The notes under the pieces were generated by a model, which did not search any database, was not told where the DNA came from, and saw only the letters and a list, made by a program, of their open reading frames with translations. This document shows positions 55,313 through 58,167 of a stretch of DNA of 64,000 nt, piece by piece. A program made the position numbers and the translations under genes. This DNA is from Clostridia bacterium. GTDB taxonomy: Bacteria; Bacillota; Clostridia; TANB77; CAG-508. Each line of letters begins with the position of its first letter. The first letter of the stretch is position 1. The stretch spans positions 7,178 to 71,177 of the forward strand of contig JAFWNQ010000010.1 in NCBI GenBank assembly GCA_017510245.1, written 5' to 3'.

Positions 55313-56245
55313 TTATTGTTTTTCTCTTCTTTCAAAAATTCTTAATTTTGCACTTTTTGATCTAGAATTTTCTCTCTTTTCTTTATCAGTTGCTTCTATC
55401 GGTTTTTTATTTATTATTTTTCCAAGAGATTTATAATTACATACACAATATGGTAAGTCCTTTGGACACGTACATTTTCCTTGTGCTTCAATAAATGCTT
55501 CTTTTACTGCTCTATCCTCCAAAGAATGGAATGTTATTATACAAAGTCTTCCACCTTCTTTTAAACATTCAATCGAGTTAATAACTGTATTATATAGTGG
55601 TTTTATTTCATCATTTACTTCTATTCTAATTGCTTGAAAGGTTCTCTTTGCAGGATGTCCATCCTTAGAATATGGTTTTGATTTTTCTATTATTTGAACC
55701 AATTCTTTAGTAGTTTTTATTTCTTTAATCTTTCTAGCTTTGCAAATATTACGTGCAATAGCTTTAGAAAAGTGTTCTTCTCCATACTTGTATATGATAT
55801 CTGAAAGTTCTGTTTCACTGTAATTATTTATAATATCATATGCCGATTTTTCTTGAGACCTATCCATTCTCATATCAAGCAGATCATCACTGTTATAGCT
55901 AAAGCCTCTACTCTTTTCATCTAGTTGATAAGATGAAACACCCAAATCAAGTAGTATTCCATCAACCTTTTGTATATTTAGTTCTTCTAATATTTCTTTT
56001 ATATTATCATGATTTCCGTGAATTAATTTAAAATTATTAAAATCTTTAAGATTATTCGATGCTGCTTTCAAAGCTTCTTCATCTCTATCAATTCCCACCA
56101 ACGTGCCATTACCAGATAGTTTCTCTATGATTCTTCGACTATGACCTGCTCCACCAATAGTTCCATCCACATAGATTCCATCTGGTTTTATATTAAGTCC
56201 TTCAATAGATTCTTCTAGTAATACTGGAATATGATTAAATTCCAA
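55313..56245 (-). CDS. rsmH: 16S rRNA (cytosine1402-N4)-methyltransferase
   Basis: (M)EFNHIPVLLEESIEGL...DGTIGGAGHS...DLGVSSYQLD... Start re-assigned to TTG at 56245 behind aaggggtgat. The 30-aa track extension would read through the terminator hairpin. Confidence 0.9.
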   Translation of the reverse strand: MEFNHIPVLLEESIEGLNIKPDGIYVDGTIGGAGHSRRIIEKLSGNGTLVGIDRDEEALKAASNNLKDFNNFKLIHGNHDNIKEILEELNIQKVDGILLDLGVSSYQLDEKSRGFSYNSDDLLDMRMDRSQEKSAYDIINNYSETELSDIIYKYGEEHFSKAIARNICKARKIKEIKTTKELVQIIEKSKPYSKDGHPAKRTFQAIRIEVNDEIKPLYNTVINSIECLKEGGRLCIITFHSLEDRAVKEAFIEAQGKCTCPKDLPYCVCNYKSLGKIINKKPIEATDKEKRENSRSKSAKLRIFERREKQ

Positions 56246-56273
56246 AATATCACCCCTTATGTAACAAAATACT

Positions 56274-56309
56274 AAAAAGTTGGCATATATCAACATATGC
56301 CAACTTTTT
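56274..56309 (-). terminator. Strong intrinsic terminator/attenuator hairpin just upstream of the rsmH RBS
   Basis: 15-bp perfect stem aaaaagttggcatat / atatgccaacttttt with a 6-nt loop. The U-run ends about 28 nt before the rsmH start. Confidence 0.7.
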
Positions 56310-56339
56310 TCGTCATTAGTTCGCATAATATACATGTCA

Positions 56340-56519
56340 TCTTTTGTAAATTCTTTTGTTTAACTCAAACATCTTTTGTAAGAGTTTTCTTTTGTTAAGA
56401 GTTTGTTTTAATCTTTTGTAACTTTTTTCTTTAGTTAAAACTTTACATACGTTTTATCTTTTGTTTGCTTTTTTCTTTTGTACATTTTTAATTAATCTTT
56501 TGTTAGTTTCTTCTTTTGT
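56340..56519 (-). repeat. Array of nine perfect ACAAAAGA octamers (plus strand TCTTTTGT) in the mraZ-rsmH spacer
   Basis: Plus-strand TCTTTTGT starts at 56340, 56352, 56372, 56388, 56412, 56457, 56474, 56496 and 56512. On the transcribed strand the preceding base alternates T/A. Confidence 0.9.
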
Positions 56520-56551
56520 ATATTTATATAAACTTTATAAAAAGTATTATA

Positions 56552-56992
56552 TCAAATACCAAGTACACCTAAGTTAGCCATATTTTCTGCAATTTGTTCA
56601 GCAGAAAGATTTTCACTACTATTGTATTTTTTCCATTCTTCCTTGTTCCATATTTCAATACGTGTTCCAACTCCAGTAATTACTGTTTCTTTATCAAGTG
56701 ATGCATATTCTCGTAAATTGCTTGGTATCAAAAATCTACCTTGTTTATCAACTACTTCTTCAACAGCACCTGATAGAAAAAATCTTACAAAATCTCTGGC
56801 ATTTTTGTTTGTTAATGGCAAAGTTTTTAGTTTTTCTTCAAAGTTGCTCCACTCAGATTGTGAAAATCCGAATAAACAACCATCTAATCCTTTAGTGATT
56901 ATGAACTTTTCTCCTAAATCCTCTCTAATTTTAGCTGGTAAAATCATTCTTCCTTTAACGTCTAGAGAGTGCTCATATTCTCCAATAAGCAA
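56552..56992 (-). CDS. mraZ: Transcriptional regulator MraZ
   Basis: (M)[23 protein letters not shown]... and a second SpoVT/AbrB-like repeat ...[15 protein letters not shown]... TTG start behind gggaggtga. This is the only CDS in the window that ends in TGA. Confidence 0.9.
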
Positions 56993-57008
56993 TATCGTTC
57001 ACCTCCCA

Positions 57009-57034
57009 CCACTTTTCACCACTTTGTTCCACTT
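57009..57034 (-). promoter_or_regulatory. Three phased AAGTGG direct repeats (candidate MraZ operator)
   Basis: Plus-strand CCACTT at 57009, 57019 and 57029, exactly 10 bp apart. On the transcribed strand: gAAGTGGaacaAAGTGGtgaaAAGTGGtggGAGGTG, running into the RBS. Confidence 0.6.
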
Positions 57035-57041
57035 CAGTTAC

Positions 57042-57070
57042 ATTGTAATACAACAAAATAAAAAATGCAA
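57042..57070 (-). promoter_or_regulatory. Candidate sigma-A promoter of mraZ (Pmra)
   Basis: On the minus strand: TTGCAT (57070-57065), 17 nt, TACAAT (57047-57042). The predicted start lies just upstream of the AAGTGG repeats. Confidence 0.5.
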
Positions 57071-57113
57071 TAGTTTTTATAAAAAATTTTTTGTTTTTTA
57101 TATAAACTATTGC
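57067..57113 (-). terminator. AT-rich long hairpin/terminator after the GGDEF operon, overlapping the mraZ -35
   Basis: gcaatagttt ... aaactattgc outer 10-bp arms with an inner A/T pairing, followed by a T-run on the transcribed strand. Confidence 0.5.
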
Positions 57114-57231
57114 TAATCACTATTTATACTTGATTATAGCGTTTTATTTTTTTGTCCACAGCTCCGCTTTTCGAGAAACTTTGTTTCTCTGCTCTCGCTG
57201 TGAAGCATAACTCTAAAGCTCACTTTGTTCG

Positions 57232-58167
57232 CTAAGAGTTATGCTTTCTTCGATCTATGACATATGTACTGCCAAAAATTGTTTTTGCTAAATGCTTTAC
57301 AGCTGCTCCCGCTTCTCCAATTTCAAGAGTGTTTTTAAATCTCTCACATGTAACCTCAACTGCACCAATAGATAAAGATGTTAAAGGAAATTGTTCAATT
57401 ATTCCTCTTCTATTTTCTACTTCTATGTATCCTCTCTCGTTATCCTGCTCGGTAAAGTACTTGTTAACTTGCTTATCAAATTCAGCTATAATATTCTGGC
57501 ATATTCTTTCATAATCTTCGGTTTCAACTATAGCTATAAAATCATCTCCTCCAATATGCCCTACAAAATTTTCATCTTTTTCATCATTTAAAACATTTTT
57601 TGTAATTATTCTGGCAGTAAATTTGATGATTTCATCTCCCTTTGAAAATCCATATGTATCATTATAAGCCTTGAAGTTGTCTAAATCTAAGTATAGCATT
57701 GCAAATCTTTTGTTATTTACAAGTCTTTTTTTCATTTCAGCCTGTATCTGTACGTTTCCTGGTAGTCCAGTTAAAGGACTTACCATTCTATTTGTATTTA
57801 ACAGTCTTAATATATTCTTAATACTATAATATAATATTTGATCATTTATTGGCGATTGTAAGTACATTTCTACGTCATTTTTTAATACATCTATTACATG
57901 TTCTGTTTCAGTATTTGATGAAATTACAATTATAGGAGTTTTTATTGTATCAACATTATCTCTAATTTCTTTGCAAATATCTATAATGCTTTGACCTTCC
58001 GTTAGTGAGTCTTCATTAATTACTAAAACTTCAGGTATATATCTCAATATTTTTTGAAAATTTTCAATTGAATGTTGCTTTATTCTAATTCCCTTGTCTT
58101 TCTTGAAATCGAGAGCCAATTCTTCTTTTAAGCCTTCGCTATCATCCAATAAATATATATTTTTCAT
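57232..58167 (-). CDS. Receiver-like domain fused to a GGDEF domain (GGDDF variant)
   Basis: N-terminal REC-like fold (LLDDSE..., VLVINEDSL, VISS, but YLQSP instead of the K-P motif). C-terminal PLTGLPGN...LDLDNFKAYND...GHIGGDDFIAIV. Confidence 0.8.
   Translation of the reverse strand: MKNIYLLDDSEGLKEELALDFKKDKGIRIKQHSIENFQKILRYIPEVLVINEDSLTEGQSIIDICKEIRDNVDTIKTPIIVISSNTETEHVIDVLKNDVEMYLQSPINDQILYYSIKNILRLLNTNRMVSPLTGLPGNVQIQAEMKKRLVNNKRFAMLYLDLDNFKAYNDTYGFSKGDEIIKFTARIITKNVLNDEKDENFVGHIGGDDFIAIVETEDYERICQNIIAEFDKQVNKYFTEQDNERGYIEVENRRGIIEQFPLTSLSIGAVEVTCERFKNTLEIGEAGAAVKHLAKTIFGSTYVIDRRKHNS

Follow-up and report, generated by a model that had tools for sequence, protein, structure and literature searches.

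The spacer between mraZ and rsmH in the cluster of division and cell wall (dcw) genes of an uncultured gut Clostridia bacterium (29% GC) carries an A-rich array of one octamer, ACAAAAGA, bounded by an AT-rich palindrome on the mraZ side and a strong hairpin on the rsmH side. We analyzed this array in a 64-kb stretch of contig JAFWNQ010000010.1 (64,000 nucleotides [nt]; referred to here as the window) and in its relatives. The element is real, strongly conserved, and undescribed. The array is a genuine and strongly selected multi-site platform that most likely acts as RNA; recognition at the RNA level is indicated by the strict sense orientation of the sites, the purine/A asymmetry of the transcribed strand, the predicted single-strandedness of the motif, a spacing that is irregular yet keeps an exclusion zone, and a hairpin that covaries while its loop differs in length. 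Our confidence is evenly balanced on the more specific reading that the array is an intercistronic protein-docking RNA that would set the fate of the dcw transcript past mraZ. What is shown here is the anatomy of the element and its conservation, the single orientation and the spacing rule of its sites, their accessibility as predicted, and the covariation of the hairpin; co-transcription of the array with mraZ, protein binding to it, and the effects of such binding are inferred.

A cluster of octamers between mraZ and rsmH

The mraZ-rsmH spacer of the window measures 306 nt (positions 56246 to 56551), in line with an earlier note on this DNA that had called it abnormally long at about 300 nt, and both flanking genes are confirmed by their Pfam domains (PF02381 and PF01795). 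The nine exact octamers that the note had listed, with plus-strand starts from 56340 to 56512, are all present and all lie on the transcribed minus strand, and the degenerate tenth copy that it placed near 56427 proved to be ACTAAAGA (Table 1). Over the whole window, ACAAAAGA occurs 18 times against 9.2 ± 3.0 expected, with half of the copies falling within 180 nt. The array is the sole cluster in the 64 kb covered: neither a second cluster (at least three motif-like sites per 120 nt) nor a target-like site was seen elsewhere in the window.

Sites of the window array are 12 to 45 nt apart. Tandem Repeats Finder (TRF) detected no regular tandem period in the array, only a two-copy 17-mer. The GC content of the array is 0.21 to 0.23, with an AT skew of -0.42 on the plus strand. 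The alternation of T and A prefixes described in the note is real in the window (TATAATATAT), but its interpretation as about 4.5 dyad units fails, alternation across relatives being 0.51 versus 0.53 in shuffled arrays. Prefix and suffix alternation both fail across relatives, and the dyad-unit idea was rejected.

Conservation of a three-part module

How widespread is this array? When one genome was scanned for each species, 80 relatives emerged (MraZ 79 to 88% and RsmH 64 to 79% identical); they are metagenome-assembled genomes from the gut of humans, rabbits, mice, chickens, and ruminants. The octamer array lies between mraZ and rsmH in all 76 relatives in which both genes were placeable. 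Their spacers range from 257 to 791 nt and hold 1 to 12 exact octamers in sense and 0 in antisense orientation, and the rest of each locus (about 6 kb) holds about one. The relatives examined comprise 65 to 66 species-level genomes, on which the array statistics are based, and about 90 metagenome contigs. The metagenome scan extends the array to lineages with MraZ identity of about 57 to 66%. A protein homologue search with MraZ gave matches only at 84% identity or above and does not define the taxonomic edge.

Aligning the spacer across relatives and building motif and covariance models, a check raised in the note, revealed a three-part module kept in every relative examined: a 5' AT-rich palindrome on the mraZ stop codon, the A-rich array, and a 3' hairpin. 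The element is confined to the mraZ-rsmH junction throughout about 160 loci. No second genomic context was found in the metagenome scan for the octamer with the 3' hairpin, and the 29 matches outside mraZ/rsmH are single octamers attributable to chance. In a triple-octamer scan of viral contigs, the inspected matches with at least four octamers per 300 nt, among the matches listed, came mostly from giant-virus genomes assembled from metagenomes and were regular tandem repeats, coding or microsatellite, none of them related; the bare octamer pattern is thus too unspecific for collection-wide scans.

The confinement bears on a possible role in trans. The array could be a sponge or small RNA (sRNA) of the CsrB/RsmZ, CrcZ, or UpsM type, derived from the mraZ 3' untranslated region (UTR) or from its own promoter, that titrates a global RNA-binding protein, with the proximity of rsmH being incidental. 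Many copies of one motif in a single-stranded context, their flexible number, and protective hairpins at both ends all fit such an RNA, and a promoter, TTGGTA-17-TATATA, can be read across the 5' element in most species. However, six species (L026, L034 to L036, L038, and L074) have a 5' element that no longer adjoins the mraZ end, and in these the -35-like TTGG is lost, so that we rejected this promoter; the U-tail typical of primary sRNAs is missing; the constant position at the mraZ-rsmH junction points to a cis link; and the window offers neither a second cluster nor a target-like site. We regard a sponge acting in trans as rather unlikely, though worth keeping in view.

One metagenome contig departs from the usual arrangement. 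L272 (OLGD01016491.1), from the same species as L210, has rsmH and no mraZ, and upstream of its last two motif sites an unrelated coding region replaces mraZ and the array. Either the contig was chimerically assembled, or mraZ and the greater part of the array were lost in a natural rearrangement.

Motif and spacing grammar

The family motif is ACNAAAGA(W)AAA, with the logo H-ACNAAAGA-W-AAA, or H-A-C-N-A-A-A-G-A-W-A-A-A. C2, A5, and G7 show essentially no variation, any base can stand at position 3, and -1 is never G. Each array contains 4 to 17 motif-like sites (median, 10), all sense oriented; exact octamers in 65 arrays number 399 in sense versus 0 in antisense orientation, with 6.7 expected from array composition. 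The transcribed strand of the arrays is 56% A. Gaps shorter than 14 nt make up 3.1% of those between neighboring sites, compared to 25.9% for random non-overlapping placement. Spacing peaks at 16 to 17 and at 22 nt, with an otherwise broad (14 to 30 nt or more) and irregular distribution. Motif nucleotides have a predicted unpaired fraction of 0.77 versus 0.59 for the rest of the array, and the difference has the same direction in 65 of 65 arrays. When six clades were aligned separately, motif columns were more conserved than inter-motif columns and indels fell between motifs in all six.

Copy number varies by whole units between and within species, as in the 351-nt and 429-nt variants of one species. 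Together with the one local 17-nt duplication found by TRF, this variation could come from an AT-rich minisatellite without function, expanded by slippage or unequal recombination and followed by an ordinary terminator after mraZ. Such an origin seems very improbable to us: the octamer stays exact while the stretches between copies diverge in sequence and length, across lineages as distant as the RsmH identities above imply; orientation is strict; short gaps are depleted to 3.1% from the 25.9% of random placement; two conserved elements flank the array; and there is no regular tandem repeat.

Two further observations concern the arrays. Among metagenome contigs of one species, L318 differs from L210, L233, and L248 by a clean deletion of about 78 nt that takes out about four sites, and individual sites in these loci switch between ACAAAAGA and ACTAAAGA; this within-species polymorphism is consistent with unequal recombination between sites and with the free motif position 3. 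Furthermore, the A-rich array of two clades is broken by a patch rich in pyrimidines, 47 to 105 nt upstream of the 3' hairpin (UCUCCUUUCCUUUC in L012, L022 to L024, L027, L028, and L031; UUUCCUUACC in L034 to L036, L042, L043, L045, L049, and L057). Each version is complementary to the rsmH Shine-Dalgarno (SD) sequence of its own clade, AAGGAG against AAGGAA. Sequestration of the SD by the array was rejected as a general feature, duplex energies between the array and the rsmH ribosome-binding site (RBS) being no better than those of shuffled controls (median z = 0).

The 3' hairpin and the terminator question

The 3' hairpin of the window has 16 pairs and a 4-nt loop followed by AGTATTTTGT, with an energy of -20.3 kcal/mol (z = -5.8). 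The perfect 15-bp hairpin with a U-run that the note had reported is thus present, one pair longer by our count. The five T residues closing the stem pair with the upstream A-run, and AGUAUUUUG comes after the stem. Its core, CAGUUGGYA...URCCAACUG (GUUGGYA/URCCAAC), is found in 65 of 66 genomes, and L015 has an unrelated GC-rich hairpin in its place. Positions are paired in 95.8% of cases, 6 of 10 pairs show double changes, and one pair is UA in 31 and CG in 27. The loop varies from 0 to 20 nt across relatives, and this variable length combined with covariation indicates an RNA stem rather than a DNA operator of fixed spacing. The last motif site lies 5 to 29 nt from the hairpin core in most species, and the hairpin lies 26 to 58 nt (up to 249 nt) from the rsmH start, 28 nt in the window.

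Does the array switch a terminator? Taken strictly, the reading of the earlier note is an attenuator in which a multimeric RNA-binding protein on the octamers switches an intrinsic terminator, so that read-through from the mraZ promoter into rsmH-ftsL is regulated. With its 16 bp, -20 kcal/mol, and U-run, the window hairpin lacks none of the features of an intrinsic terminator, and it lies at a short distance from the rsmH start, the last motif sites are close to it, and partial termination inside the dcw transcript is known from UpsM (PMC5089854). However, a T-run of at least four after the stem occurs in just 3 of 64 relatives, most of which continue with CUGCUUGUGCUAU; a stem-loop with a U-rich tract is present in the window and a few relatives, such as L210 and L015, and not in most. 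Since the U-run is not conserved, what relatives share at the heart of the mechanism does not look like a canonical terminator. Inspection of the relatives also revealed no conserved competing (antiterminator) helix overlapping the 5' arm, the 4 to 17 copies, variable even within species, are unlike a stoichiometric ring binder, and the distance from hairpin to rsmH varies from 26 to 249 nt. A strict attenuator is therefore unlikely in our estimation. What stands of the note's multi-site platform gating the dcw operon is the platform ahead of rsmH; gating by a terminator does not hold across relatives, and the TRAP/PyrR logic serves as analogy only. The window hairpin looks like a terminator, and canonical termination looks like species-level variation; the conserved role of the hairpin is more likely structural, as a pause site, an exonuclease barrier, or a processing/recognition element.

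An outer extension of the 3' hairpin pairs in individual sequences, and a fixed-register column test of it fails because the register differs between clades; it was not retained. In L034 to L036, L043, and L049, a long extra insert separates the 3' hairpin from rsmH, the region measuring 157 to 249 nt. The insert of L043 is GC-richer (...CCGTGTACAACAAGGTTAAGTTTCCTTGGACCGTGTGGTTACGAAGCAACCTGCACATGTGGCGAAG...) and could be another element; it has no Rfam match at gathering score.

The 5' palindrome

The 5' element usually overlaps the mraZ stop codon, and in the window it lies directly upstream of the first motif site. mraZ ends in GGT ATT TGA in the window and GGT ATA TAA in most relatives, and these codons continue into the palindrome. 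The covariance model R1 gives one match per source, at the mraZ end, in 92 of 94 sources, with none in L015 and L033; in the 64-kb window, it matches the copy in Table 1 only. That copy folds as a hairpin. Among relatives, 97% of cells in the element are pairable, and only 2 pairs have double changes.

Probable transcription of the array

The mraZ promoter is the only evident promoter able to drive the array (57000 to 57070), and the window has no consensus promoter between the mraZ coding sequence (CDS) and the array. It is associated with GTGG-type direct repeats at a 10-bp period upstream of mraZ, which we take to be the known MraZ box in its classical autoregulatory operator layout. With this promoter as the sole evident one, and the promoter reading across the 5' element lost in six species, the array is most simply part of the mraZ transcript.

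The note had further argued that the hairpin leaves no room for an rsmH promoter, which is too strong: a sigma-70-like site, TTGATA-16-TATTTT (56293 to 56266), overlaps the hairpin of the window and is a possible rsmH promoter, of uncertain significance. This site opens a reading at the DNA level, in which the direct repeats bind a transcription factor or nucleoid protein controlling an rsmH promoter at the hairpin and the palindromes are operators. Such a reading would draw on an extended -10-like motif downstream of the hairpin in a minority of relatives (see below), on the 5' element and the UUGG/CCAA core being kept as sequence rather than by covariation, and on the 22-nt spacing peak near two helical turns. 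On the other side, DNA operator or iteron arrays have fixed or helically phased sites with a constant half-site distance, whereas spacing here is broad, with a second peak at 16 to 17 nt and hence no helical phasing; the half-site distance of the hairpin varies by 20 nt while compensatory changes keep its pairing; the transcribed strand has a strong purine/A asymmetry; and the -10-like motif is missing in two-thirds of species and in compact loci stands 6 to 9 nt before the SD. We know of no operator that resembles the array motif. A DNA-level element is, in our view, quite improbable, and read-through from mraZ is kept as the default, with an rsmH promoter as the alternative.

Comparison with known RNA elements

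The note knew of no described element with this motif, and the searches agree. In Rfam 15, including the mraW motif RF01746, there was no relevant match at E ≤ 10 in window positions 55900 to 57400 (cmscan) and none at gathering score in ten relatives; literature on the octamer and on mraZ-rsmH intergenic RNAs offered nothing relevant except UpsM. The mraW RNA motif of Actinobacteria (RF01746) is likewise noncoding and conserved, and it directly precedes mraW/rsmH in the dcw cluster; it is GC-rich and structured and has no repeated octamers.

The TRAP-bound trp leader of Bacillus subtilis and PyrR-type leaders resemble the array in that short single-stranded RNA motifs stand ahead of a hairpin and the regulated genes, with occupancy setting the fate of the transcript. 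TRAP, however, binds 9 to 11 (G/U)AG triplets, 2 to 3 nt apart, as an 11-mer ring, whereas the motif here is 8 to 12 nt long, irregularly placed, present in 4 to 17 sites, and at least 14 nt apart centre-to-centre in 97%. TRAP control also uses an antiterminator/terminator pair, and here neither such a pair nor a U-run is conserved. PyrR recognizes a single structured site, in contrast to the many sites, variable in number, of this array.

CsrB/RsmY/RsmZ (for CsrA) and CrcZ (for Hfq/Crc) are likewise noncoding RNAs with variable copies of one short motif and a terminal hairpin, and the motifs of CrcZ are also A-rich and single stranded. The A(N)GGA motifs of the CsrB type lie mostly in hairpin loops, whereas the motif here lacks GGA, has G7 followed by an invariant A, and sits in unpaired linkers. 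The CrcZ/Hfq type uses AAnAAnAA or (ARN)n, and AACAAAAGA can be read as three ARN triplets; however, U begins half of the copies and occupies position +1 in 50%, and the invariance of C2, A5, and G7 is left unexplained by AAnAAnAA or ARN. Unlike these sponges, the array is embedded in an operon, without an evident promoter of its own or a U-tail.

Type III toxin-antitoxin arrays of the ToxI type share the order of direct RNA repeats, hairpin, and gene, and they are A-rich and recognized by a sequence-specific RNA-binding nuclease. Their units have a constant length of about 34 to 36 nt, are conserved throughout, and precede a toxin gene; here 8 to 12 nt are conserved, unit length varies, and RsmH is encoded downstream. 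Operon-internal mRNA maturation sites of Firmicutes, such as those of RNase Y cleavage at cggR-gapA or saePQRS, combine an unstructured AU-rich intercistronic segment with a stable hairpin before the distal cistron. Protection of the downstream mRNA by the hairpin after cleavage would apply here likewise, but those sites are single and have no conserved multi-copy octamer.

By analogy, the RNA within a dcw transcript that comes closest as a functional precedent is UpsM. In Rhodobacter and other Rhodobacteraceae, this sRNA arises by partial termination in the dcw 5' leader, and read-through or processing sets dcw mRNA levels under control of the sRNA StsR, Hfq, and RNase E, with a canonical Rho-independent terminator (PMC5089854, PMC8266604). 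Like our element, it is a lengthy noncoding part of the dcw transcript that bears a hairpin, precedes essential division genes, and is restricted to a family. It differs in lying upstream of mraZ and in being structured without a repeated motif, whereas the array is motif defined and lies downstream of mraZ, in Clostridia.

A model for the array and points that weigh against it

As an intercistronic protein-docking RNA, the array would work as follows. Transcription would start at the MraZ-controlled mraZ promoter, and an unstructured A-rich segment would present 4 to 17 single-stranded copies of ACNAAAGA(W)AAA. Each copy would be the docking site for a single unit of a protein, perhaps a nuclease, that binds RNA sequence-specifically and covers about 14 to 16 nt. 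The AU-rich hairpin on the mraZ stop codon and the strong 3' hairpin would delimit and protect the segment, and occupancy of the array would determine how much intact message passes from mraZ into rsmH-ftsL-pbp. In species with a U-run, such as that of the window, this could happen by pausing or termination at the 3' hairpin, and in the majority without one by cleavage, after which the mraZ and rsmH halves would differ in stability. The array, capped by its hairpins, might also persist as a stable RNA titrating the factor. More tentatively, and with less than even confidence, we suggest that the array is the cognate RNA of a new protein or nuclease that recognizes single-stranded RNA by sequence in a large lineage of uncultured gut Clostridia, and that the pair gates the first dcw intercistronic region or the protein is titrated by it.

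Several points weigh against this model. Among the RNA-binding protein motifs compared, none matches that of the array: CsrA needs GGA, which the motif lacks; TRAP needs (G/U)AG triplets; and for Hfq, ARN or AAnAAnAA leaves the invariant C2 and G7 unexplained. All three were rejected as binders. KhpA/B, which have KH domains and a connection to cell division in Firmicutes, are tempting as a matter of speculation, and published work on them gives no sequence motif. The predicted accessibility of the motif partly follows from A-rich composition. The 5' element is nearly invariant in sequence, so that covariation leaves its hairpin unproven, and in the 3' hairpin the 3' flank shows higher conservation than the 5' partner with which it pairs. 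Co-transcription of the array with mraZ, the ends of the RNA, and its abundance are all inferred from sequence. Finally, 23 of 65 relatives carry an extended -10-like TGnTAnnnT in the 26 nt that follow the hairpin, exactly 6 nt after CCAAC in 20 of these 23, against 4.1 ± 1.8 in shuffles. The motif is not universal and may reflect shared ancestry, but rsmH might have its own promoter at the hairpin, with the array then being only a 3' UTR.

Other candidates for the binder were considered and set aside: NusA-KH, MraZ, RsmH (by mimicry of 16S h44), MazF-type toxins, and SpoIIID/WalR/LytTR boxes, none of which fits the invariant positions.

Annotation of the locus and neighboring features

TTG is taken as the rsmH start of the window because relatives have start codons (ATG, TTG, or GTG) at the same aligned position, ahead of GAATTTAA. 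Automatic or mechanical rsmH calls, in the window (55313 to 56335, minus strand) and in loci L001 to L009, instead begin at an upstream ATG (56335 or 56326 in the window), giving 340 or 337 amino acids (aa). Such calls, which translate through the 3' hairpin and the last motif sites, are probably over-long, and in public annotations of the clade the element is probably concealed within an rsmH that has been extended too far.

The gene upstream of mraZ (57232 to 58167, minus strand) encodes a receiver-like domain fused to a GGDEF domain with the signature GGDDF. A link between this gene and the element was rejected, as it adjoins mraZ in only about 25 of 80 relatives. Between its stop codon and the mraZ promoter lies a comparatively GC-rich segment of about 95 nt (57150 to 57245, minus strand) with two stable hairpins (-37.3 kcal/mol, z = -6.4), without a U-run after them and without an Rfam match at E ≤ 10; the segment may represent a terminator of an unusual kind or a further structured RNA.

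Table 1. Features of the mraZ-rsmH region in the window
Feature	Position	Strand	Details	Basis
mraZ promoter, -35 and -10	57070-57065 (TTGCAT); 57047-57042 (TACAAT)	-	17-nt spacer	Sequence
Operator repeats	57035-57029 (GAAGTGG); 57025-57019 (AAAGTGG); 57015-57009 (AAAGTGG); 57005-57000 (GAGGTG)	-	10-nt period; reach the mraZ SD	Sequence
mraZ CDS	56552-56992	-	146 aa, TTG start	Open reading frame list; Pfam PF02381 on identical protein; relatives with 57-89% identity
5' AT-rich palindrome/hairpin	56520-56556	-	Family consensus GUAUAUAACUUGCAAAAGUUUAUAUAAAU; window copy is a longer variant
A-rich array	56340-56519	-	Ten motif sites: nine exact ACAAAAGA, one ACTAAAGA
Exact ACAAAAGA sites	56512-56519; 56496-56503; 56474-56481; 56457-56464; 56412-56419; 56388-56395; 56372-56379; 56352-56359; 56340-56347	-
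Tenth site	56428-56435	-	ACTAAAGA	Sequence
3' hairpin	56274-56309	-	AAAAAGUUGGCAUAUG-UUGA-UAUAUGCCAACUUUUU	Terminator scan, fold, covariation
Sigma-70-like site overlapping the hairpin	56266-56293	-	TTGATA in loop, 16-nt spacer, TATTTT	Consensus scan
rsmH RBS and start codon	56258-56251 (RBS); 56245-56243 (TTG)	-	RBS AAGGGGTG; CDS onward to 55313, 311 aa	Sequence; Pfam PF01795 (Methyltransf_5)

Significance of the element

Metagenome-assembled genomes from the gut of humans, mice, rabbits, chickens, and ruminants commonly carry the element, and it is invisible in current annotation because rsmH calls extend through the hairpin. Its sharply defined, highly multivalent motif of 8 to 12 nt makes an unusually good bait for RNA pull-down, by which a new RNA-binding protein or endoribonuclease with sequence specificity could be found in Firmicutes, where global RNA-binding proteins are largely undefined. 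Control of dcw clusters after transcription initiation is poorly understood, the only well-studied RNA element being UpsM of alpha-proteobacteria. If the array is indeed the cognate RNA of a new RNA-binding protein, MraZ-controlled transcription would be coupled to the level of rsmH-ftsL-pbp mRNA through a multivalent coating of the RNA, a form of control undescribed for dcw clusters.

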